Part shown: in pieces, positions 1,757 to 64,000 of the stretch
Layout of the letters: every line of letters begins with the position of its first letter
Numbering within the stretch: the stretch's first letter is position 1
Source: an uncultured bacterium
Lineage (GTDB): Bacteria; Patescibacteriota; Minisyncoccia; UBA6257; GWB1-50-10
Direction of reading: 5' to 3'
Assembly: GCA_963768835.1 (NCBI GenBank)
Contig: CAVYJB010000001.1
Coordinates: forward strand, 88,420-152,419
DNA length: 64,000 nt
The notes under the pieces: generated by a model
Seen by the model: only the letters and a program-made list of their open reading frames with translations
What the model was told of the DNA's origin: nothing
Databases searched by the model: none
Made by a program: the position numbers and the translations under genes

Positions 1757-2011
1757 TTAAGTGTCAAGCGGGCCTCCCACCCGACGGCGCCCCCACCGGA
1801 TGCGATCCCAGAAACGCTCATGGGCATAATACGCGGCGCTCGTGTAGATGTTGCTCACTATTGTAAATCCCGCGGCAATGTCCAAGCGTCGGGTCCAAAG
1901 GTAAAGCACTGTGAAATCAAGAGCAAGAACGAGTATGCGGTAACTCACCGCTTTGGCAATGGAGCGTTTCCGCTCTTCAACGAATTGTGCTTTGTTTGCG
2001 CCTTGTTCCAT
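1757..2011 (-). CDS. small membrane protein (DUF2061-like)
   Basis: 84 aa, two TM helices, basic N-terminus; resembles DUF2061 family by memory. Confidence 0.4.
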   Translation of the reverse strand: MEQGANKAQFVEERKRSIAKAVSYRILVLALDFTVLYLWTRRLDIAAGFTIVSNIYTSAAYYAHERFWDRIRWGRRRVGGPLDT

Positions 2012-4334: not shown

Positions 4335-5771
4335 CTATTGTACTTCGGACCAGGAGATGGGGGTATACTGACTTCCCACGAGCGGGTAGCTTGGCGGCGG
4401 GCCGTAAAGGAGATTTGAATCATAAGAAATATTGCGCGTCTGGTAGCCTGTATTATCCGTGTAGGCAAAACCGTAACGAACATAGGAAGCGATCATCCCA
4501 TAGAGCGTAAGGCCGGTGCGGACATAGCCCGTGCCGCAATTGGAATCGTAGTAGTAGCGTCCCACGCGTCCGCTCTGCGCCGTGAGCGCTCCGTCGATGC
4601 GTAGGGTGTCCGCTGAGGAAAGACCCGTATTGATATTGTTTTGTGCAATGAGGCCAATAGAGTCACTGCCATCGTAATTCGTATACAGGAGATTGGAATT
4701 CACGGTGATAGAAGTGCTGGTTGCGATCCCAACGGGGAATGCGCCGGAGGCGATCGTGAGACGCTCATGGTTGATCTGGCCGCGCACCCAGATGTTGTCC
4801 TCGAAGAATAGGAGGCCGCTCGTCGGGACGGGATAGGTTCCAAGGAGGGCCTCATTCGAAACTGACCAGGTCCCCCACCCCGACTGTCCCTGGGAGTTCG
4901 TGCAGTTCTGGGGAGGCGCGGTAAGCGCCGTCACCTTGAAAATAGATACCGTGCCGGTGGAATTTAGGGCCACGTCGTACCCGAAGACCGTTGACGTTCC
5001 TCGGTAAATACCGTTCGTGATGGCAGCCGACTTTATCTGCGAGAGGGTCTGAGTAATACCATTGAAATCAAGTGCAGGGACACCGAGCTGCCGCCCAGCC
5101 ATAAATACATCCGGACGGTTGGGAAGTGTCGCGGGTGGATAAGGATCCGCAGGCGATACGAGGGTGTAGACCGCATACTCCGGCGGTGGGCCATAGTCAG
5201 GATCGGTATAGGTTGTGAGCGCGCTTGCCACAAGATTATGGGCAACTCCATCAAAGTGGATACCGCCATTTGAGGTGATGGGTCCGTAGACCACGGTTCC
5301 TGCGCCGAAGCGAACATTGTCGTTCGATCCGACTGCATACTTTGCAAGCGAGGGGATACCGAGCCGCACCCGAATGATTTTCTGGATAGAAGAATCGGTG
5401 AGGAGGCTTCCCGCACTTTGTATCGTAACAATAGTCGAGCTGGGCGTAGGAGGCGTAATGGTAAGGGCAAAGGCCCCAATCTGGTTACCATCTTTGTCAT
5501 AGAAAAGATGGACGTACGGGCCGGTGCTCGTCGCGCCGTGACCATCCCAGTAATCTGTCGACGCGTGGGCAAGGTGCCACCGATAATATTCGACGCCGGA
5601 TTCCGCGATAGCGAACGCTTGGGTTTTCCGGAGCTCCCGGACCGATGAGTTTAGGGTCGAAAAGGACCAAACCACAAATCCCGTGATGGCAACCAAGGTC
5701 ACCGCCGTGAAAATCAAGAGCTGAATTGATATCTGACCTTGGATGAAGCGAAGCGAGCGCATGGAATTCAA
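4335..5771 (-). CDS. large minor pseudopilin-like protein (GspK/PilX-like, Gln at +5)
   Basis: N-terminus RFIQG/QISIQLLIFTAVTLVAITG resembles prepilin leader with Q replacing E5; 478 aa; translationally coupled in pilin operon. Confidence 0.5.
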   Translation of the reverse strand: MNSMRSLRFIQGQISIQLLIFTAVTLVAITGFVVWSFSTLNSSVRELRKTQAFAIAESGVEYYRWHLAHASTDYWDGHGATSTGPYVHLFYDKDGNQIGAFALTITPPTPSSTIVTIQSAGSLLTDSSIQKIIRVRLGIPSLAKYAVGSNDNVRFGAGTVVYGPITSNGGIHFDGVAHNLVASALTTYTDPDYGPPPEYAVYTLVSPADPYPPATLPNRPDVFMAGRQLGVPALDFNGITQTLSQIKSAAITNGIYRGTSTVFGYDVALNSTGTVSIFKVTALTAPPQNCTNSQGQSGWGTWSVSNEALLGTYPVPTSGLLFFEDNIWVRGQINHERLTIASGAFPVGIATSTSITVNSNLLYTNYDGSDSIGLIAQNNINTGLSSADTLRIDGALTAQSGRVGRYYYDSNCGTGYVRTGLTLYGMIASYVRYGFAYTDNTGYQTRNISYDSNLLYGPPPSYPLVGSQYTPISWSEVQ

Positions 5772-6394
5772 TTGGAACGCAAGTTCCTAATGGTGACGAA
5801 ATCCGTGAAGGTGGTAGGTTTCGGAGAGGTCGAGGTTGAAACATCGGCAGTGAGTATGATCTGCACGGAGCGAACGATTGTAGGATCTGTGATAGGAAAC
5901 GAAATCGCAGGCTGTGTTCCTGTATAATTCGTGTCAAAGTAGGCGAAAGAGCTGGAGGAAGCAATGGTATTTGGCACAACAACCGTCACCACCTCGCCAG
6001 TCGAAGTCGGATAGGTGGGCGGGTTCCCGACGGGGACCGTCACGCCTTTTTGTAGGGTGTTTGTAGCGATGGTATAACGGACTCGCTCGAAAGTCCCGTT
6101 TTGGTTAATATCGCTGTAGAAAACGATGGTAGAAGTGCCCGCAGATTCCAGAGGGTACGCGCCAGCGGCCGAAGGGCCCATCGAGCGGACTTCTGTCACC
6201 ATGGACTGGAGCGTCGACTCGACATCCTGCTGGGGTCGGAGCTTCCGATCCAGGAACCCCTGAATGTTCGAGATAATACCGACAAACTGGGTGAGAACGA
6301 GAATCACGCCCATAGAGATGGCCAAGCCAACGATTATTTCGAGGAGCGACCACCCCTCTCTCCGTTTCCGCGTTGAGAAAAGCTTTGATTTCAT
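5768..6394 (-). CDS. type IV pilin-like protein
   Basis: MKSKLFSTRKRREG/WSLLEIIVGLAI prepilin motif with E5; start chosen at Met14 of listed ORF. Confidence 0.6.
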   Translation of the reverse strand: MKSKLFSTRKRREGWSLLEIIVGLAISMGVILVLTQFVGIISNIQGFLDRKLRPQQDVESTLQSMVTEVRSMGPSAAGAYPLESAGTSTIVFYSDINQNGTFERVRYTIATNTLQKGVTVPVGNPPTYPTSTGEVVTVVVPNTIASSSSFAYFDTNYTGTQPAISFPITDPTIVRSVQIILTADVSTSTSPKPTTFTDFVTIRNLRSN

Positions 6395-6399
6395 TGCGA

Positions 6400-8148
6400 T
6401 TAGTGAGTAAGATCGATCTCCGTACCTTGCCAACCGTTACCGACTGAAACAGTGCTCGTCGCATACGCGAAACCAGCTGCCGTTACGTTCACTCCATAGG
6501 AACCTGTTGAAAGTCCCTGGAAAAGCGCTTGTCCAGGCGGCACGCAGGGGCCGCTGAAATCAAAAGTCACGTCATCCACCTCCGGAGTGGTTGCTGAATC
6601 CTGCGTTTTGAGAAAAACTTTGTAACGTAGATAGCGATTTCCGTCGAAGAGACCACCGATCACCGAGGAGGATGCTGTGAAGTAGCTCCCAGCACCACTC
6701 GGCCCCACGAAGTTCCAGGTTGCATTGTCATTGTTGGCCGCAACTTGAAACTCAACGCTTCCCTGCCCTGTGGAAGGTGGCGCCGAACCGGGTCCCCAAG
6801 AAAGGTAATAGAGCGAAGAGGAGCTTGAACCGAGGTCGATAGTGTTCGAGATGAGCCAGGAAACCGTGGTGGTGCTGAAAGGTCCGCCGGCTGGTGCCAT
6901 CCGCAGAGCGCCCGGAACCGAAGTGGTGTCTGTGTTGCTTTGACCTGAGAATTGGCCGCCAGACCAGTCGGTCTGGGTAACAAACGCATGATCCGTGGTA
7001 TGAGACCACACCGAAGCTCCTTGGGAAATGTTCACGGTGGCGCTGGGAACCGAGGCGCCCGAAGCGGCGTCTTTCACTGTCACAGAGAGCGAATTGGGAC
7101 TTGTGGGGAGGAGAATAAAAGCAAAGCTCACAGTGGTACTGGGCGAGATAGAGAGAGAAAGAGACGGCGTGGCGCCTACAAGATCATAGCTCGAACCCCC
7201 ATAGGTGAAGACGTAGTTGTCCCATTCGAGATTGGGGTTCATATAGGTCCCACCACTCCCGGTTTTCGTGCTGGTCGCGAACTTCAGAACATTCGGGCTC
7301 GACCCGATAAGCTTCGCTCCCTGGTAGGAAAAACTTTGATTCGCAATCGGCACGCAGGTCGGTCCTTCAGTCATGACGGTAAGAGGACTAACGCGGTCAA
7401 TCTGGAAACTCACAGGTGTAAGCGTCCCCGCGGAGACGGTGGCGTAACCCGGTGATGGATTTGGGTTCGAGGGAATACCGAAGGGATAGTTCTGGGCGGT
7501 GGTATAACCAGCTTTCGTCACGCTAACATGGTAAGACTGGGTGCTTGTCGGAACCCCAACAAGTTGGAGTACACCGTTCAGGTTTGTGGTATCCGTAAGA
7601 TTGATAGTGGGGGTCGTCGAAGTGTTTATCACGTTCACCGTCGCCCCTGACACTGGATTGCCGTTCGCATCGAAAACGTTTACGAACAAGGAACCCTGAT
7701 TTGAGGCACTCTCAAGGTTCTTGGGGGCAACCCATGTTGTGAGAGAAAGAGGGACAAACCCAACACAGGAAAGACACTGCATCTGTAGCTGCACCAGCTT
7801 GTAATCCGCGGGGGCTGTGTCGGTTGGGGCAAGCCCATCAAAAGGATCATCAATATTTCGGATTGTTGTCGTAAGAAGGAAGGTAGCGCCCTCCGTCGAG
7901 GACACGGTCTGTGTGGGCGGGAGGATGCCCGACGGAATGCCCCCTACCGTTCCGACCGACGCATAGGGAAGGCCGCGGATGATTTCCACTTGGCGGTTCA
8001 ATAACGCCGTGGCTGCAGTACGGAAATCGGTGTTCGTCACTACTTGAAGGACCGCCGTATGAAAAATGTAGATGCCCCCAAACAGCACCATAACCATCAT
8101 GATGCCGATGAGCACTTCAATGAGCGATGTGCCGGCGCGAGCGTGCAC
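6400..8148 (-). CDS. giant pilin-like protein (582 aa)
   Basis: N-terminus MHARAG/TSLIEVLIGIMMVMVLF canonical class III signal with E5; long beta-rich Thr/Ser/Gly-rich C-terminal region. Confidence 0.6.
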   Translation of the reverse strand: MHARAGTSLIEVLIGIMMVMVLFGGIYIFHTAVLQVVTNTDFRTAATALLNRQVEIIRGLPYASVGTVGGIPSGILPPTQTVSSTEGATFLLTTTIRNIDDPFDGLAPTDTAPADYKLVQLQMQCLSCVGFVPLSLTTWVAPKNLESASNQGSLFVNVFDANGNPVSGATVNVINTSTTPTINLTDTTNLNGVLQLVGVPTSTQSYHVSVTKAGYTTAQNYPFGIPSNPNPSPGYATVSAGTLTPVSFQIDRVSPLTVMTEGPTCVPIANQSFSYQGAKLIGSSPNVLKFATSTKTGSGGTYMNPNLEWDNYVFTYGGSSYDLVGATPSLSLSISPSTTVSFAFILLPTSPNSLSVTVKDAASGASVPSATVNISQGASVWSHTTDHAFVTQTDWSGGQFSGQSNTDTTSVPGALRMAPAGGPFSTTTVSWLISNTIDLGSSSSSLYYLSWGPGSAPPSTGQGSVEFQVAANNDNATWNFVGPSGAGSYFTASSSVIGGLFDGNRYLRYKVFLKTQDSATTPEVDDVTFDFSGPCVPPGQALFQGLSTGSYGVNVTAAGFAYATSTVSVGNGWQGTEIDLTH

Positions 8149-8161
8149 GGTAGTAGGAGCG

Positions 8162-9241
8162 TTACTGAGTGAGTCCTTGGGAAATAGAATAGATGGGAAG
8201 CACGATGGATAGGGCTACGAATCCCACGATGACTCCCATAAAAACCAAAATAAGAGGTTCGATGAACGCCGTGAGATTTTTCAGGGAGCCATCGACTTCT
8301 TCGCTGTAGTAGCTCGCAAGATAGTTAAGGTTCTCGATGAGATTCCCGGTGCCTTCACCGATCTGAATCATACCGGTGAGGAGCGGCGGGAAAAGGCGCG
8401 GATGAGCCGCGAGGAGACGTGCGAATTGCTCGCCTCGGCGAACACCTTCGGTCGCGAGAACCAAATTCCTACGATAGACCCGGTTATCAAGGGTCTGACT
8501 CGTGATGGTCAGGGCTTCAACGATTTTGATACCACCCTTAAGAAGAATCCCTAGTACGCGGCTCAGGTTCGCCATGTTAACGTCCACCACAAGGTGAGAG
8601 AGTACAGGGGTCATCAGCATCACTCGATGAAAGAAATAACGCATGATCTTCAACTTCATGACGAGTCGTAGCGCTATAAAGAGGACGATGGCCCCGACGA
8701 TGATGATAACGAAGTAGGACTGAAGGAAGCCGAGAACGGCGATGAGGGCCTGTGTAACGGCCGGAAGTTTGACGCCGAGGTTTGAAAAGGCGGTCACAAG
8801 CTTGGGAAAGATGAAGAAGGTGAGGAAGCCACACACCGCGATGGTCATGACAAAGAGAATAGCAGGATAAATAAGCGCGGAAACCACTTTCCCTCGGAGA
8901 TCTTTTGACTTTTTCATCTCCTCCGCAAGGTACAATAGATTATCGCCGAGGGTTCCGCTCGTCTCCCCTACCTCTACGATGCTGATGAAGAAGTCACCGA
9001 AGACATCCTGAAAGTGCCGGAGACTCTTTGCAAGCGATTGCCCATTATTGATGTCAGAAATCAACTGGTCGATGACTCGGATGAGACCCTTCGAAGTCGT
9101 CTGGCTCCGTATGATCTTCAGGCCTTCGAACATTGGAAGGCCCGCCTTGATAATGATGGAAAGATGCCGTGCGAAGTTGATCTTCTCCTGAGTCTTGATA
9201 CGGTTGAAAAGACCGATGGAGATGTGAGGAGGGCTAATCAT
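8162..9241 (-). CDS. pilC: type IV pilus assembly platform protein PilC (GspF family)
   Basis: Two GspF/T2SSF-type repeats and three TM segments; ATG at 9241 overlaps pilB stop (CATGATTAG). Confidence 0.85.
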   Translation of the reverse strand: MISPPHISIGLFNRIKTQEKINFARHLSIIIKAGLPMFEGLKIIRSQTTSKGLIRVIDQLISDINNGQSLAKSLRHFQDVFGDFFISIVEVGETSGTLGDNLLYLAEEMKKSKDLRGKVVSALIYPAILFVMTIAVCGFLTFFIFPKLVTAFSNLGVKLPAVTQALIAVLGFLQSYFVIIIVGAIVLFIALRLVMKLKIMRYFFHRVMLMTPVLSHLVVDVNMANLSRVLGILLKGGIKIVEALTITSQTLDNRVYRRNLVLATEGVRRGEQFARLLAAHPRLFPPLLTGMIQIGEGTGNLIENLNYLASYYSEEVDGSLKNLTAFIEPLILVFMGVIVGFVALSIVLPIYSISQGLTQ

Positions 9242-19730: not shown

Positions 19731-19842
19731 ATGCCGGCGTACCCTACTTTCCCGACTCCCGAAGGAGCAAGTATCATCAGGCCTGCGCGCTTTCACTTCT
19801 CTGTTCGGAATGGGAAGAGGTGGTACACGCGCCGGTTAAACA
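19731..19842 (-). rRNA. rrf: 5S rRNA
   Basis: Minus-strand match to 5S consensus: GCGCTTTCACTTCTCTGTTCGGAATGGGAAGAGGTGG (loop C/E region) and helix I ends; ends approximate. Confidence 0.7.
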
Positions 19843-19875
19843 CCAGCAAACCGAAACCGTGGTGCGGAACTACCA

Positions 19876-23000
<3,125 letters not shown>

Positions 23001-59787: not shown

Positions 59788-60228
59788 CTAAATTTTAGCA
59801 CCGACGGTCTCTCGGCTAAAGCTTTTGGCGGCGGAAATCCCGATGACCGCGCCGATAATGGCTCCGGCGACGAAATCAGAGAACCAGTGGATGCTCATGG
59901 ACACCCCAAGCCCGACATACAGCGCGTAGAGGATTGCCACGACCTTCAGAAGCTTATGCTTGGGATAAAGAGCGATGAGAGCAAACATGGAGGCGAACGC
60001 CACCATGGCGTGCGAGGAAGGCCATCCCCAAAATACGCCGCCGCGAAGAAGCCCGAACCGAAATCCGTTGCTGATATCAACAGTCGAGGCCGTGAGCATG
60101 CTGGGCGGCTGGATTCGTCCGGTGAAGGGACCTTCTTGATAGGCAGGGAAATTAATACTTCTCCAAAAGTTCGTTGAGTTTAGCACAGAATTCGGGCGTA
60201 AAGCGTGAATCTTCAAAGGTATCATCAA
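59788..60228 (-). pseudogene. PAP2-family phosphatase C-terminal fragment (possibly truncated gene)
   Basis: PAP2 motifs 2 and 3 present (PSSH; SMSIHWFSD) but motif 1 KX6RP and N-terminal TMs absent; 5' end overlaps AT-rich NERD gene. Confidence 0.4.
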
Positions 60229-60934
60229 AGTACCTCTTTATGCCATCCGCACTAGTGATTATATATACCTCAGGCTTTTCAATCTTTTCTATTTTATATC
60301 GATCACCAACCATAAGAATCGCGCCTTTCACTTTAATTTGGCTAAAATCGTTTTTCATGAGCCACTCTTCAAGTGCCTCGTTGTGATACGCAGCTTCTCT
60401 AACGGGGCTTTTCCATCTTCCCAGCTGGCAATAGCAGGTATTACCATCGGGGTATCTTGAGATCTTATACACCTCGCTTTCGATGAAACGGTATTCGCCA
60501 GATAGGTTCTTGACCTCAATGGTGATAATTCCCTTCGGCCCAACGACAATGGCGTCAATATCAAATCTCTTACCGGGAATCTTAAAGTTTCTGTATAACC
60601 GATAGGAGCTACCAAGCATTTCGAGAAGTCGCTTAAACGCCTTTTCCTCTCCTAGGTTCCCTTTCAAGGCATTTTGAAGGTTGTACTTCGCCCTATCTAA
60701 CAAGTCGTCGAGCTTATGAAGTAACTTAGTTTCACCCAGTGTTATCAGGACACCCAAGAGTATGCCTATGGCACCTATCGTTGCTTTTTCATCGAGCCAG
60801 AGTTTCCGAGAGACAATATCTCTAATGCTCCAATTAAGCGCGAGGTAAGATAAGAAACCGAGCGCAAGTATAGTAACGATAATTATAAGTGCGTTCTTTA
60901 TTATTTGTCTTTTAGAAAACGATAATTTGAGCAT
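60152..60934 (-). CDS. NERD (nuclease-related domain) membrane protein on AT-rich island
   Basis: Two N-terminal TMs then NERD-like region GNLGEEKAFKRLLEML...RFDIDAIVVGPKGIITIEVKNLSG; local GC far below window average. Confidence 0.6.
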   Translation of the reverse strand: MLKLSFSKRQIIKNALIIIVTILALGFLSYLALNWSIRDIVSRKLWLDEKATIGAIGILLGVLITLGETKLLHKLDDLLDRAKYNLQNALKGNLGEEKAFKRLLEMLGSSYRLYRNFKIPGKRFDIDAIVVGPKGIITIEVKNLSGEYRFIESEVYKISRYPDGNTCYCQLGRWKSPVREAAYHNEALEEWLMKNDFSQIKVKGAILMVGDRYKIEKIEKPEVYIITSADGIKRYFDDTFEDSRFTPEFCAKLNELLEKY

Positions 60935-61129
60935 TGATGTTTAGCTCGATAGGTCTTTTATACTTGCGTGCCTTGGATTCAAACTCATCTAAATGCTAGA
61001 CCGCCTGTCGGAAATGACAAGCGGTTTAGCACATTTGTAGGCCTCTCGCATGGGGTACCCACACAGGCGAGACACCGTAAGGACCCCTTAAGGATGGCCG
61101 AGGAGGTCCGACGACGCAAGGGGGTCGGG

Positions 61130-61590
61130 GCCTGAAATGTAACATGTAACAAATGTAACACGACGTGCAAGGTTCGGGGAACGTCGCTTTTTCGGGAGAT
61201 TACCGACTAAGGCACATAGATCAAGGATTCTTTGATGGTCGAAGTGTAACATGGCAAATGCAACACCCGGAGGACTGTTTCCGCCTGAGCGAAAGTTAAC
61301 AAAGTTTACACAGGAAGAGACGTTAACTTTTATGCGTTAACTTTCTGAATCTTCGATGAAAATGGCACAAATGGCACTCCACGGTGTGACTTTATTGTGT
61401 GCCATTCTGGTGTGCCAAAGAGCCGCAAACCGGACAAAGCGGACACAAAAGGACGCAGTCCGGACGTGTCCCATTTGAACAGGGACGTGTCTCATTCCCT
61501 AAAATGGATGCCTGTAAAATAAGGCTTTTCTATGCAAATGAGACAAATGAGACACTTTTAGGGGGTGTTCCGATCGTGTCTCATTTTTCA
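61130..61590. repeat. noncoding region with at least nine different short direct-repeat doublets and inverted repeats
   Basis: GTAACA x3; GGCAAATGCAACA; GTTAACAAAGTTTACA; CGTTAACTTT x2; ATGGCAC x2; GTGTGCCA x2; CGGACA x3; GGACGTGTC x2; AATGAGACA x2; 11-bp inverted repeat AAATGAGACAC/GTGTCTCATTT next to RT stop. Confidence 0.6.
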
Positions 61591-62550
61591 GCCTACCAAT
61601 CCAATCCGTTTTCTGATGGCATAGGTGTTCCCGTGTTGCAGGAGCCCTCGGTAGGAGGATGCGGTCTCCGGTTTCGGGCGTCTCCCCATGCGCGTGAGCA
61701 CTCTTCGCTTCGTCGCGGTGCGAAGCACCCGATGATCCGGAAAGTGCACCCAGCCCAGGAAATCGACGCCGGAGGCGAGCGTGAGGATGGAAATCTTGTC
61801 GGGGTGAAGATCGAGCTTGAGCCGTTCGAAGAGGAATGCTCGGATCCTGGGGAGGATCTGCTCGAGTCGCGCGCGATCGTCCGAGAAAATCACGAAGTCG
61901 TCGGCGTAGCGGATGTAGTGGTGGGCGCGGAGGCGGTGCTTCGCGAATCGGTCGAACTCATTCATGTACACGTTCACGAAGAGCTGGGAGGTGAGATTGC
62001 CGAGGGGCAGGCCGATGCCAGGCCGCGTCGAGGAGAAGCTGCTGACAACGGCGCGGGCAAGCCATACAGTTCCTTCGCCCAGGTCCCGCGCAAGAATTCC
62101 GAGAAGCGCTTCGTGGTCAACGCTCGCGAAGAATTTCCGGATGTCGCACTTCAGAATCCAGCAGGTCTTCGTGTTGTTCTTGCTGGCCTGCCAACCGAAG
62201 CGCCGGAAGCGATCCAGAGCTTTATGTGTCCCCTTTCCGACCCGGCACGAAAAGGAATCGGCGATGAACTTCCTGTCAAAATGGGGGTAGAGCACGCGGT
62301 AAACGGCATGATGAAGGAGGCGGTCGCGGACGGTGGCTTTATGGATGTTCCGCGGCTTCGGATCGGAAATATTGAACGCTTGATAGCCGCCGTGCCGGTA
62401 GGTACGATGGAGAAGGTCGCGATGCAGAGAGAAGATGTGATCCACCAGGCGCAGGGAGAACTCCGCGACATCCGGTTTGTATCGCTTCCCGGGCAGGAAT
62501 TCTTGCCACGCCTGAAGTAAGTTCTCGACACTCGCGATTTTTTCAAACAT
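61588..62550 (-). CDS. diversity-generating retroelement reverse transcriptase
   Basis: RT motifs incl. YADDFVIF and DGR-type LGNLTSQ (I/LGxxxSQ); 320 aa from ATG 62550; cognate TR/VR pair present. Confidence 0.8.
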   Translation of the reverse strand: MFEKIASVENLLQAWQEFLPGKRYKPDVAEFSLRLVDHIFSLHRDLLHRTYRHGGYQAFNISDPKPRNIHKATVRDRLLHHAVYRVLYPHFDRKFIADSFSCRVGKGTHKALDRFRRFGWQASKNNTKTCWILKCDIRKFFASVDHEALLGILARDLGEGTVWLARAVVSSFSSTRPGIGLPLGNLTSQLFVNVYMNEFDRFAKHRLRAHHYIRYADDFVIFSDDRARLEQILPRIRAFLFERLKLDLHPDKISILTLASGVDFLGWVHFPDHRVLRTATKRRVLTRMGRRPKPETASSYRGLLQHGNTYAIRKRIGLVG

Positions 62551-62572
62551 ATGGATACGGAGCAACCCGGTA

Positions 62573-62583
62573 CCCCCCCCCCC
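62573..62583. repeat. C11 homopolymer between divergent RT and avd starts
   Basis: Eleven consecutive C on plus strand (G11 on RT coding strand), 23 nt upstream of RT ATG 62550 and 12 nt before avd TTG 62595; lies inside the longer listed RT ORF (encodes GGGG). Confidence 0.9.
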
Positions 62584-62594
62584 GACGGAACCAA

Positions 62595-62942
62595 TTGCCG
62601 GTAGTTCAAAAATTCGTCTCGGCATACAAGCTCTGGCACGAAATCGTTCCGGACTTTCCTAAAACTTCGCGCTATACCTTGGGCTCGAGAATCGACTCCC
62701 TTTTTCTGGAGACGATCGAACTCATTTTCTCCGCCGCCTCCGTCACCCCCGCGGAGAGGTTCGCAAGAGTGGGAATCGCGGCAGCGAAGCTGGATGCCTT
62801 GAAATTCCTTCTTCAAATTTCCTGGGAGATAAAAGCGCTGGATACCAAGAAATACATCCTGCTCTCCGAAAAACTCGACGAGGCGGGGAGGATGCTCGGC
62901 GGATGGTTACGGCAACTCTCGGAGAAAACTTCCCCGCGGTAG
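62595..62942 (+). CDS. avd: Avd-like four-helix-bundle accessory protein of DGR
   Basis: 115 aa; pattern KLWHEIVPDFPKTSRYTLGSRIDSLFLETIEL...DEAGRMLGGWLRQL resembles Avd/TIGR02436 four-helix bundle; TTG start as listed; opposite strand to RT and TR. Confidence 0.6.
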   Translation: MPVVQKFVSAYKLWHEIVPDFPKTSRYTLGSRIDSLFLETIELIFSAASVTPAERFARVGIAAAKLDALKFLLQISWEIKALDTKKYILLSEKLDEAGRMLGGWLRQLSEKTSPR

Positions 62943-62961
62943 CGCGGGGAAGGAAGCGGTA

Positions 62962-63076
62962 AGCTTCGAGAGAGCACGCAGTTGCCGTCGTTCCACCTGT
63001 TGTCATCCAGGTCGTTCGCATTCAGGTTCCACTCGCGGTCGTTCGAGTTCCAGTTCACGTTCACCGCAACCACGCG
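62962..63076 (-). repeat. DGR template repeat (TR), 115 bp
   Basis: 115-bp repeat of 63318-63432; all 22 mismatches occur where this copy has A on the minus (RT-sense) strand; translates as Asn (AAC)-rich pseudo-ORF VAVNVNWNSNDREWNLNANDLDDNRWNDGNCVLSRS. Confidence 0.85.
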
Positions 63077-63254
63077 TTCTATGCGCGACGCGCCGCCCAT
63101 GCCACCGCTCCTCGAATACTCTTGGAGCTGTATCGTATTCCGGGTCTAACCCGATAGCGCATCGCACCAGCTGACCTCTTTTATTTGTTGAAATCTCCCC
63201 GCCGGAGCCGTGACCGCAGCGATGTCGAGAAACTTCCTCTTTATTGTAACAAAA

Positions 63255-63279
63255 GACCCCGTTCATACCGAACGGGGTC
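63255..63279 (-). terminator. GC-rich hairpin plus T-tract 37 nt downstream of VR/target stop
   Basis: GACCCCGTTC-atacc-GAACGGGGTC 10-bp stem followed by TTTTGTT on minus strand; position matches DGR VR-proximal stem-loop and a rho-independent terminator. Confidence 0.6.
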
Positions 63280-63315
63280 AACACCGAGAACCCAAGAATC
63301 CGAGAATCCGAGAGG

Positions 63316-63981
63316 TCAGCTGCGAGAGAGCACGCAGCGGCCGCCGAACCACCTGTAGTCATCCAGGCCGAACGCATCCAGGCCCCACCCGCGGCCGTCC
63401 GAGGACCAGAGCACGCGCACCGCAACCACGCGCCCTTCCAACTGCACATAGAAGACGTTCGCGTAGCCGTTCATGAGGAGCGTGCCTTCTTCGCCCTTCG
63501 GTTGCTTCGTGAGCAGATCGCGGATGAGGGCCGCGAACTCTCCGGGCGTGAAGGGCTCCGGGTGTCCGAGTTCCGTGAGGATCTCGGAGTCGAGCATATA
63601 CTTCGTGAGCTTCGTCTGCGTGAGCGTGCCCTGGAACGCTTCGATGGTCTCGGGAATCAGGGGGAGCACCCACTGCTCGAAGTTGCTCCCGAGCCAGAGC
63701 TTCACAGGACCCTTCTTCCCGAAGAACGATTCCTTCGTGAAGGACTCAGTCGCTATCGCGATGCCGTCCGTGATGAGCTTCAGGGATTTCAGGGCGAGCT
63801 TCTTTGCGCCGTTCGTGCCAGCGACGATGAGTTTCGCCACTTCCTTCGCGAGACCTGTACCTGTCTTCATTCTTTCGAACATCCGTTCCTCGTTCCCCCC
63901 GAGCTTCACGACTTCCTTGTAGACTTCCGTGAAGAACTCTGCCCCGAAGAGCATGCCGCCAACCAACTTTGATTTCTGCAT
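63316..63981 (-). CDS. DGR target protein (221 aa) with C-terminal variable region
   Basis: ATG 63981 with GGAGGTG RBS; no signal peptide or TM; C-terminus ...AVRVLWSSDGRGWGLDAFGLDDYRWFGGRCVLSRS encoded by VR. Confidence 0.75.
   Translation of the reverse strand: MQKSKLVGGMLFGAEFFTEVYKEVVKLGGNEERMFERMKTGTGLAKEVAKLIVAGTNGAKKLALKSLKLITDGIAIATESFTKESFFGKKGPVKLWLGSNFEQWVLPLIPETIEAFQGTLTQTKLTKYMLDSEILTELGHPEPFTPGEFAALIRDLLTKQPKGEEGTLLMNGYANVFYVQLEGRVVAVRVLWSSDGRGWGLDAFGLDDYRWFGGRCVLSRS
63318..63432 (-). repeat. DGR variable repeat (VR), 115 bp, at 3' end of target gene
   Basis: 93/115 identical to TR; differences only at TR adenine positions; begins at target stop codon. Confidence 0.85.
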
Positions 63982-64000
63982 AGTGCACCTCCGTATGGTG

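Follow-up and report, generated by a model that had tools for sequence, protein, structure and literature searches.

Short specificity repeats at the end of a mobile element are a familiar kind of thing. In the attP sites of phages they occur as the Cox/Xis sites and the arm-type sites of the integrase, i.e., the cox-boxes of P2 and the X1-X2 and P'1-P'3 sites of lambda. Other phage repeats are involved in transcription and packaging: the TTGC-N6-TTGC direct repeat of lambda CII straddles the -35 region of pI, pRE and paQ, lambda gpNu1 binds R3, R2 and R1 in cosB (with the order R3-I1-R2-R1), and phage SPP1 has the sites pacL and pacR. Here we describe what appears to be one short DNA recognition module, stacked in six or more versions at positions 61130–61590 of a 64-kb window (the whole stretch of DNA analysed, from contig CAVYJB010000001.1 of an uncultured member of the Patescibacteria). 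The repeats lie between a NERD-domain gene and the reverse transcriptase (RT) gene of a diversity-generating retroelement (DGR), both assigned by Pfam (Table 1), and the NERD side continues with PAP2, MFS and ABC-F genes; the relatives of this MFS gene point to Patescibacteria / Paceibacteria as the group of the organism.

The original prediction, made from the sequence alone, had described the region as noncoding and packed with nine different units, each duplicated locally. Every repeat that it listed was recovered by inspection of the sequence, a repeat search and tandem-repeat analysis with TRF, the inverted repeat after the RT stop codon (61545–61555 / 61576–61586) is genuine, and only short unsupported open reading frames (ORFs) cross the region. 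The units are, instead of nine different sequences, variants of a single frame with a variable 3-nt core: all doublets can be written as AAA-[T/G]-NNN-AC, in two contiguous copies with a period of 9 bp and a closing AC. The skeleton AAANNNNACAAANNNNAC matches four times in the window, always on the + strand and within 61292–61553, when 0.05 matches were expected from shuffles; four matches were reached in 0 of 100 shuffles. Single sites of the form AAA[T/G]NNNACAC number nine in the 64 kb, seven of them within 61151–61586. TRF delimited five period-9 arrays (61135–61160, 61292–61310, 61360–61377, 61426–61445 and 61535–61554), and the repeat search of 60900–61700 gave nine direct-repeat families and eleven inverted pairs. 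We have named the modules E1, E1' and E2 to E5. The last four match the skeleton exactly, E1 has a 7-nt middle copy and E1' is degenerate. Inverted copies (GTGT-NNN-CATTT) usually stand 9–60 bp from a doublet and were found downstream of E2, E3, E4 and E5, while the same repeat search detected none at E1 and E1'. With six to seven cores within 460 bp this is the richest array among those that we have seen.

The first relative of these modules appeared in a search of 80 related genome loci, in which the 20-mer of E5, AAATGAGACAAATGAGACAC, was found twice in one locus (L024), each time followed by TATAAA and the inverted GTGTCTCAT. Both copies are preceded by ~140 nt homologous to window positions 60994–61134, a noncoding block referred to below as the scaffold. 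The idea of a LexA/SOS box was rejected because the motif was present only in L024 among these 80 loci (~1.3 Mb). A metagenome scan with AAATGWRACAAATGWRACAC gave at least 121 matches; among the 121 listed, the pair GAGAC/GAGAC accounts for 101, and the two cores are equal in 113, against 1/4 expected. A strict scan of viral contigs with AAATGNNACAAATGNNACACTATAAA (22 bases) recovered 16 loci with the cores GAGAC, GCGAC, GTCAC, GTAAC and GGGAC, and the two NN were equal in 15 of the 16. In an open viral scan equal cores were found in 44 of the 130 matches listed (1/16 expected), a few of these being ordinary tandem repeats. The further cores in phage contigs, where they stand directly upstream of the small terminase gene (terS), were GTAAC, GTCAC, GGCAC, GGGAC, GCGAC and GTTAC; GGCAC, the core of E3, has three copies in this position in phage locus L172. 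More than 100 unrelated contigs carry the E5 20-mer without a change, which, together with the single conserved frame, contradicts the independent local duplications that had been proposed. A coding role of the doublets was also rejected: from phage to phage they are crossed in any of the three frames, and there are stop codons in the cores GAGAC and GTAAC. One 40-aa ORF (MKMAQMALHGVTLLCAILVCQRAANRTKRTQKDAVRTCPI, 61356–61478, + strand) crosses E3–E4 and has a hydrophobic stretch and a basic tail, its status as a gene being unsupported.

The consensus of the GAGAC/GAGAC modules is [GTCTCAT]..CTCGGTCGGGG..doublet..TA-rich hexamer..GTGTCTCATTTT. In 94 non-redundant GAGAC modules the hexamer is most often TATAAA (32/94), then TATTTA, TACTTA and TGGATA. 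An inverted GTCTCA follows at 9–15 nt in 24 of them and at 19–23 nt in 38 (20–23 nt in 37), while 31 lack it; about a third have an inverted copy on the upstream side. E5 is a complete member of this family, having the 20-mer, the inverted site at +22, an upstream inverted copy and a degenerate hexamer, TTTTAG. This upstream copy is probably the E4 inverted copy at 61487–61496, which has the GAGAC core. At the other window modules the closing AC is followed by GACGTG, CCGGAG, AGGAAG or AAAAGG; no window module carries a TA-rich hexamer (TATAAA, TATTTA, TACTTA) at this position, at which all of them look degenerate as judged from the sequence, and the spacings between modules are irregular. Among 50,697 annotated phage records there was only one chance-level match (31 nt, E=0.7), no similar sequence was found in 72,556 plasmid records, and in the literature searched the doublet 16-mer was not found, while the matches of an 11-mer were unrelated primer sequences. 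The motif family, its 3-bp core variants, its abundance in Patescibacteria metagenomes and its arrays of different cores appear to be undescribed: Rfam has no such family, the literature search gave no match, and annotated phages and plasmids gave none that was significant.

The genes next to the modules are those of mobile elements. A large serine recombinase is located near GAGAC modules in 12 loci by clustering, often 120–373 nt downstream and in the same orientation; by tblastn, relatives of the recombinase were found in 21 loci, 18 of them module-bearing, and a tyrosine integrase in 1. The commonest gene directly downstream codes for a zinc-ribbon protein, a family present near GAGAC modules in 13 loci and directly downstream in five. 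The C-terminal part of this family matches HTH_17 in 4 of 9 members, MerR in 2 and Exc in 1, all weakly and below the curated cut-offs. A ParB-domain DNA methylase was found in 10 GAGAC loci and a LexA-like repressor in 4; the recombinases and ParB-methylases were confirmed as such by Pfam. On phage contigs terS comes directly after the doublet and is followed by large terminase, portal and head genes. At least seven lineages, with five or more different cores among them, have this arrangement. Each ~13-kb phage locus has a single doublet cluster, and in L115, L133, L137 and L123 it comprises 5–9 sites, in both orientations, in less than 200 bp. The module setting has the anatomy of the recombinase-side end of an integrative element, and in phages it also looks like the head of a packaging operon. 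An iteron-like or recombination site, one of the earlier suggestions, thus came close as to the location, with the same modules at the recombinase-side ends of phage-like elements and beside tRNA genes.

The scaffold is the second recurrent part of this arrangement. The window scaffold matches the scaffold profile with E=7e-22 (nhmmer), the window being one of the three source sequences of the profile; independent support comes from a third copy in L024 (E=6e-13) and from alignments with 25 other sequences. Scaffolds measure ~100–150 nt and have the conserved boxes ..GGCTNNC..CTCGGTCTAGAACC.. and ..GTCTCGGTCGGGG.., as well as GGTC-containing boxes. The window has only one scaffold for its six modules; in our own reading the stretch before E1' (..TTTGATGGTCGAA) may be a decayed scaffold-like sequence. 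Beyond the scaffold there are opposite-strand genes, sites with a hairpin and a T-run and, in six loci, true tRNA genes, which in 10 of 10 doublet-tRNA pairs are on the scaffold side and on the opposite strand. On its opposite strand, the scaffold has an outer edge that resembles a tRNA from the T-loop to the 3' end (GGTTCTAGACCGAG-N7-G-CCA). A true tRNA fragment was rejected, given that the identity to real tRNA 3' ends is 13–19/26 and the T-stem does not pair, and ARAGORN detected no tRNA or tmRNA at the scaffolds. A small RNA gene on the opposite strand had been suggested by a TAAAAT box and by the hairpin and T-run sites beyond the end of the scaffold, seen for 26 of 88 on that strand versus 14 on the other; it was rejected because RNAalifold gave no structure and the TAAAAT box is missing in one subfamily. 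In the subfamily of L263, L266 and L241, a sequence 20–35 nt upstream of the doublet (TATCAAAGATTTG / TATCAAAGTTTTG) fits what we take to be the consensus for IHF, WATCAANNNNTTR. A LOOT RNA match (97 bits, E=7e-18) is located in L265 at 1771–1890 (- strand), ~0.7 kb from a scaffold and GAGAC module.

In L024 three scaffold copies, each divergent from the neighboring gene, flank short cassettes, a pattern also found in L298; the scaffold and module units of these two loci are in direct orientation, 0.85–3 kb apart, around one to four small genes. One L024 scaffold copy lies 95 nt from an MFS gene, which hints at a recurrent junction near this gene. The cassettes of L024 at 4500–10000 include a LexA-like repressor, a weak Cas2 match, a weak match to the transmembrane Pycsar effector and a radical-SAM/DUF5131 gene, so that this stretch looks like a small island of defence-type genes.

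Arrays of modules with different cores were found in other contigs as well (Table 1), and GAGAC is usually the module nearest to the genes of the element, with the exceptions of L324 and L278. Such multi-module arrays at element ends come near to another of the earlier suggestions, scars of repeated insertion. The five units of L278 have the cores TAGAC/CGGAC, GAGAC, GTAAC/GTTAC, CTGAC and TAGAC/CAGAC; strong hairpins with a T-run can be seen by eye between some of them, and the scan scored one such site, at 2160–2187, just upstream of the first unit. In sample ERR11594402 two Logan contigs overlap by exactly 61132–61161, i.e., by E1, and the assembly graph therefore branches there. An element boundary at the modules is supported in L246, L213, L308 and L222; the window itself has no recombinase, the second element end is beyond it, and an empty site with which to compare it was not found.

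Table 1. Coordinates of the repeat modules and of their surroundings in the window, followed by arrays of different cores in other loci.
Feature	Position	Strand	Sequence, evidence or order
NERD-domain gene	60152..60934	-	Pfam NERD, E=4.6e-17; first gene beyond the scaffold, divergent from the doublets
Scaffold	60994..61134	+	Noncoding block that precedes repeat modules in other genomes; nhmmer and alignments
10-bp hairpin	61000..61026		ACCGCCTGTC-GGAAAT-GACAAGCGGT; inside the outer (NERD-proximal) end of the scaffold match; sequence and minimum free energy folds
Scaffold palindromic box	about 61040-61072		Centre GGGGTACCC
Scaffold box	61120-61129		GGTCGGGG
Module E1, core GTAAC	61135..61161	+	AAATGTAAC-ATGTAAC-AAATGTAACAC; aligned to GAGAC modules
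Hairpin with T-run	61161-61194		CGACGT-N14-ACGTCG; after E1, where the inverted copy usually stands
Module E1', cores GTAAC / GCAAC	61242..61266	+	Degenerate doublet, AAGTGTAAC-ATGGCAAATGCAACAC
Module E2, cores TTAAC / TTTAC	61292..61344	+	Doublet 61292-61312; TTTAC in the second copy
E2 inverted copies	61321-61330, 61335-61344		CGTTAACTTT; both within 61321-61344
Module E3, core GGCAC	61360..61419	+	Doublet 61360-61377
E3 inverted copies	within 61386-61419		GTGTGACTTT, GTGTGCCATT, GTGTGCCAAA
Module E4, cores CGGAC / GGGAC	61427..61496	+	Doublet AAACCGGAC-AAAGCGGACAC, 61427-61446
E4 inverted copies	61466-61476, 61487-61496		GTGTCCCATTT and GTGTCTCATT, respectively
Module E5, core GAGAC	61536..61586	+	AAATGAGACAAATGAGACAC, 20 nt, GTGTCTCATTT (61576-61586); ends 1 nt before the RT stop codon
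DGR reverse transcriptase	61588..62553	-	Pfam RVT_1, E=1.4e-23; 3' end abuts E5
bAvd	62595-62942	+	Pfam
DGR template repeat (TR) / variable repeat (VR)	62955-63076 / 63311-63432		80% identical; VR inside a 221-aa target gene
Array L308			tRNA-His, scaffold, CTGAC, GTTAC, GAGAC
Array L248			Scaffold, GGAAC, GTTAC, GAGAC
Array L230			Scaffold, GTGAC, GGGAC, GAGAC, then serine recombinase
Array L222			tRNA-Met, scaffold, GCGAC, GAGAC
Arrays L236, L284			Two modules each
Array L278	2050-2800		Five tandem units, each 75-117 nt long; 85-96% identity apart from the cores

The connection with the DGR can be followed through the RT. In a tblastn search, the window RT found a 49%-identical RT in L272, which has the same divergent bAvd and belongs to the phage family of L084, itself the carrier of a GAGAC module, and a 49%-identical RT fragment in L246. 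The order in L246 is a tRNA and a DJ-1-like gene (both on one strand), the scaffold, a GAGAC doublet, the inverted site and the 3' end of a convergent RT. The window has this same order, except that five more modules separate its scaffold from its GAGAC module; at the DNA level the window and L246 are conserved only at the module sites. Since L246 shares the order scaffold-GAGAC module-RT, we have provisionally taken E5 and the DGR as one element with its edge at the scaffold, which would leave NERD-PAP2-MFS outside. The GC content is 41% in NERD, 59% in 60985–61134, 45% in the array and 58% in the RT. A role of the array as a DGR component (TR, VR, initiation of mutagenic homing site or RNA spacer) was rejected: it lies beyond the 3' end of the RT, the TR/VR pair is 1.4 kb off, and the two are unrelated in sequence. 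The RT protein had no identical record in an exact look-up. RT and bAvd are divergent, TR and VR are on the strand opposite to bAvd, and a TR-to-RT transcript would cross bAvd in antisense. Past the DGR target gene, and beyond window position 64000, L099 (1–1111) has another bAvd-like gene, of 97 aa, together with an ORF of 68 aa, making this a DGR locus with two Avd genes in opposite orientations.

We hold with moderate confidence that the modules are protein-recognition repeats from the recombinase-proximal end of temperate phages and islands, which have been stacked at one junction; our confidence in any single binder or role is much lower. Each module consists of two 9-bp direct repeats and usually one to three inverted copies, with a constant frame and a 3-nt core that varies from module to module but is common to the copies of one module. 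Their home would be the temperate phages and the integrative islands with large serine recombinases of Patescibacteria, where they would lie 100–150 bp inside one element end, behind a scaffold with an outer edge like the 3' end of a tRNA, and directly upstream of the first gene (the recombinase, the zinc-ribbon protein with its apparent excisionase-like helix-turn-helix (HTH) or, in phages, terS). The putative binder would be a small HTH protein encoded by the element, the 3-bp core setting its preference in the manner of an immunity or specificity group, with the zinc-ribbon/HTH_17-like family as the obvious candidate. By binding both the tandem pair and the inverted copy, this protein may control transcription of the adjacent gene, help a recombination complex to assemble at that end, or both. 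In the window, the scaffold would mark the junction with the chromosomal NERD-PAP2-MFS genes, and the modules in between would most likely have accreted as several related elements recombined at the same junction. These modules are presumably partly decayed, since no TA-rich hexamer follows any of them and their spacings are irregular.

Among the described systems, the closest working analogies are the Cox/Xis-type proteins and the arm sites of integrases, CII on its direct repeats, and cosB. The Cox/Xis and arm-type sites are similar to the modules in being short (9–13 bp) tandem direct repeats, 50–150 bp from the crossover and beside a recombinase or excisionase gene. The sequence of Cox/Xis sites is likewise specific to the element and they can double as transcriptional operators, and here the gene directly downstream is most commonly that of the zinc-ribbon protein with weak HTH_17, MerR and Exc matches. 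However, the recombinases that accompany the modules are of the large serine type (21 loci versus one with a tyrosine integrase), a type that is not known to use arm sites. Unlike Cox/Xis sites, the modules have only two tandem copies, and their motif is found at the head of the packaging operon, too, in phages without a nearby att site. The promoters of CII share with the modules a direct repeat with a short core, a single protein serving several promoters (that of the integrase included) and the temperate phage setting. In one subfamily TATTTT follows ~12 nt after the second core, which we take to be close to the CII geometry. The period is 9 instead of 10, though, the hexamer comes only 2 nt after the repeat in the commonest subfamily, there are many specificity cores and inverted copies, and no CII-like gene was identified.

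Several observations weigh against protein-recognition repeats stacked at a junction. The binder of the modules is a candidate only. The HTH of TerS does not change with the core: a GRSTYYRW-like recognition helix is common to phages with GAGAC and with GCGAC, and the recognition helix differs between two GTCAC phages. In our own reading the distance from doublet to hexamer misfits the standard -35/-10 geometry of sigma-70, and a scan of the window for sigma-70 promoters or intrinsic terminators gave nothing convincing. The terS settings of phages have neither the scaffold nor a nearby recombinase, and therefore no single role, be it recombination or transcription, fits all settings. We know of no large serine recombinase that requires accessory arm sites. 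In the window and in L246 the module faces the 3' end of a convergent gene and thus is not the promoter of that gene. The scaffold edge, as stated above, is only 13–19/26 identical to real tRNA 3' ends. Finally, the high identity of the L278 units outside their cores makes them look maintained, not decayed, and a "graveyard" origin may be insufficient for all arrays.

A competing explanation, which fits the phage settings, is packaging, i.e., pac or cosB-like sites bound by the small terminase, the chromosomal arrays being copies or mimics of the sites of several phages. The position of the doublet directly upstream of terS in at least seven phage lineages, and the single cluster per ~13-kb phage locus with sometimes 5–9 sites in both orientations within 200 bp, are in line with this, as is the scaffold palindromic box ~110–130 bp upstream, where a nicking site would be. 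In our own comparison the two direct copies, the ~20 bp and the inverted copy resemble cosB. As with cosB and SPP1 pac, phage loci have direct and inverted repeats just upstream of terS, in one cluster and with a sequence specific to the phage. On the other hand, most GAGAC modules precede a recombinase or the zinc-ribbon/HTH gene rather than terS, those of the window do not precede terS either, and modules are often away from terS, 3–4 kb in L226 and L084 (with an opposite-strand gene in between in L226). They can also be duplicated within 1–3 kb, with two modules 0.85–3 kb apart in L298 and L024, and the recognition helix of the TerS HTH does not covary with the core. Contig ends near modules have no common end point, for which reason they were rejected as physical genome ends. 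We consider packaging a doubtful explanation of the family. As a separate observation, L084 (IMGVR_UViG_3300020195_001307) has an exact period of 9,117 bp, with 0 mismatches in 5,363 compared bases, which may point to a small replicon, to a concatemer or to a mis-assembly; besides the GAGAC module it carries a ParB-methylase, another methylase, terS, a short terL, PfkB, a ribonucleotide reductase and a NUDIX gene.

The arrays could also be working devices of multiple specificity at the edge of an island, with a different phage group for each module, which would answer the terminase, the excisionase or the regulator of that group. Several infecting or resident phages would then each be able to activate, mobilise or package the DNA next to the array (here the NERD nuclease gene on one side and the DGR on the other), and the array would be a natural "OR gate" for phage sensing or hitch-hiking. 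This reading is open because arrays recur in unrelated contigs, the L278 units differ at their cores, as if these had been kept different on purpose, and GAGAC is usually innermost; we nevertheless judge it improbable. In a more radical variant, the 3-nt core may be read by base pairing instead of by a protein.

Base pairing is also the basis of another possibility, that of hairpins in RNA (a terminator, an attenuator or a small RNA that includes the scaffold) or in single-stranded DNA (attC, IS200-type), in which the direct and inverted copies would share their core because they pair. In most family members the second repeat pairs with the inverted copy in an 11-bp stem that has a T-run behind it, and at E1 the inverted copy is replaced, in the same place, by the unrelated CGACGT-N14-ACGTCG with TTTTT. 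Folding of the 666-nt region is also better than that of its shuffles, with z=-4.6 for the + strand and z=-6.8 for the - strand, and more than 12 different cores would evolve more easily through pairing than through co-evolution with a protein. Against this, Rfam had no relevant match at gathering or permissive thresholds (window 60800–63400 at E<=10, and the scaffolds of nine other loci). RNAalifold, run on both strands with 26, 23 and 14 sequences, gave -7.2, -13.7 and -1.7 kcal/mol, nearly all from the module hairpin, the pairs being this hairpin and a mini-hairpin of 3–4 bp, essentially without compensatory changes; the input MAFFT alignments were imperfect, and a variable middle hairpin seen by eye is possible. 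The structured noncoding RNA proposed originally finds no support in these results, in which no consensus fold goes beyond the module hairpin. Loops of 19–20 nt are long for terminators, of which the scan of the window was negative; the inverted copy is absent from 31 of the 94 GAGAC modules and from the terS modules of phages; the pairings of E4 would cross, not nest; heterologous pairs exist, such as the GAGAC doublet with a GTTAC inverted site in L210; and the universal tandem direct pair is left unexplained. All in all, we find it unlikely that hairpins are what the modules are for. The attC sites of integrons were rejected specifically, given that the consensus cores (RYYYAAC / GTTRRRY) misfit, a tyrosine recombinase is present in 1 locus only and a tandem direct pair is no feature of attC. 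A CRISPR array, with its identical repeats of 23–50 nt and unique spacers of similar length, was rejected as well, the units being 9 nt and contiguous.

It is much less probable that a phage-plasmid-like element uses the modules as the iterons of its replication origin, or for partition, with a Rep or ParB-like protein as the binder. Element-specific direct repeats, an inverted copy and an adjacent A/T-rich hexamer resemble the Rep iterons that we know, and a ParB-domain methylase is a frequent neighbor (10 loci). The likeness extends to the iterons of geminiviruses and of rolling-circle Rep proteins, in which tandem cores, an inverted copy and a TATA-like element are found and the core is specific to the lineage and common to all copies. 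Yet neither a Rep (HUH) nor another initiator gene was seen in the module neighborhoods, the nonanucleotide hairpin is lacking, and the setting is a bacterial chromosome or a phage. The modules have only two tandem copies where an origin would be expected to have at least three, and a position at an element end, upstream of a recombinase or terS, is atypical for an origin. There was no clear turn of the GC skew at the repeat region, nor a similar sequence among the plasmid records mentioned above. There is also a striking resemblance to the promoters of SP6 and K11 (..GTGACACTATAG..). In the modules ACACTATA is preceded by a triplet that varies and by a stretch rich in A/T, and this triplet would occupy about -11 to -9, presumably the specificity positions of the SP6/K11 family. 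Unlike these promoters, the modules occur as one cluster per ~13 kb and not as many promoters, TATA follows only about a third of the GAGAC modules and none of those of the window, and a T7-like promoter was rejected as no single-subunit polymerase was present in any fetched locus.

Scars of the DGR RT (target-primed synthesis or template switching) or of replication slippage, as originally predicted, can hardly account for the modules: the array abuts the RT stop codon and exact tandem copies of period 9 can arise by slippage, but the same 20-mer with the same flanks is found in more than 100 contigs, an RT-like match was present in only three of the ~220 module-bearing loci (L246, L272 and, weakly, L315), other cores belong to phages without an RT, the TR/VR pair is distant and unrelated, and the conserved frame with its inverted copies indicates selection.

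Two further observations concern the surroundings of the family. A separate family of repeats, in L212, L235, L254, L277, L282, L287, L292, L310 and L312, has four tandem 9-mers (AAATGAGAC-AATGGAGAC-AAATGAGAC-AAATGAGAC-AC) followed by a run of 6–9 T and a conserved ..GGAATCAG.., with other flanks and no scaffold; at least some of these loci come from soil metagenomes. In the window, the 23S rRNA match (19897–22999) covers 3103 nt versus 2925 nt of the model, so the gene probably has insertions; the 5S gene (19732–19847) adjoins it, and no 16S gene was found in the 64 kb.

The phages and islands of Patescibacteria (the candidate phyla radiation, CPR) are known mostly from their gene content, and to our knowledge almost no regulatory or recombination signals have been characterised experimentally in these bacteria. 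A 20-bp motif that is present in well over 100 metagenome contigs and marks one end of recombinase-bearing elements is a simple handle to find and delimit the mobile elements of this group, those that carry a DGR included. A practical outcome is that the odd repeats are not the product of the neighboring reverse transcriptase. The close variants, which differ only in a 3-bp core, offer a compact system in which to study the diversification of DNA recognition among competing phages. If the stacked arrays prove functional, islands would have in them a novel means of responding to many phages.

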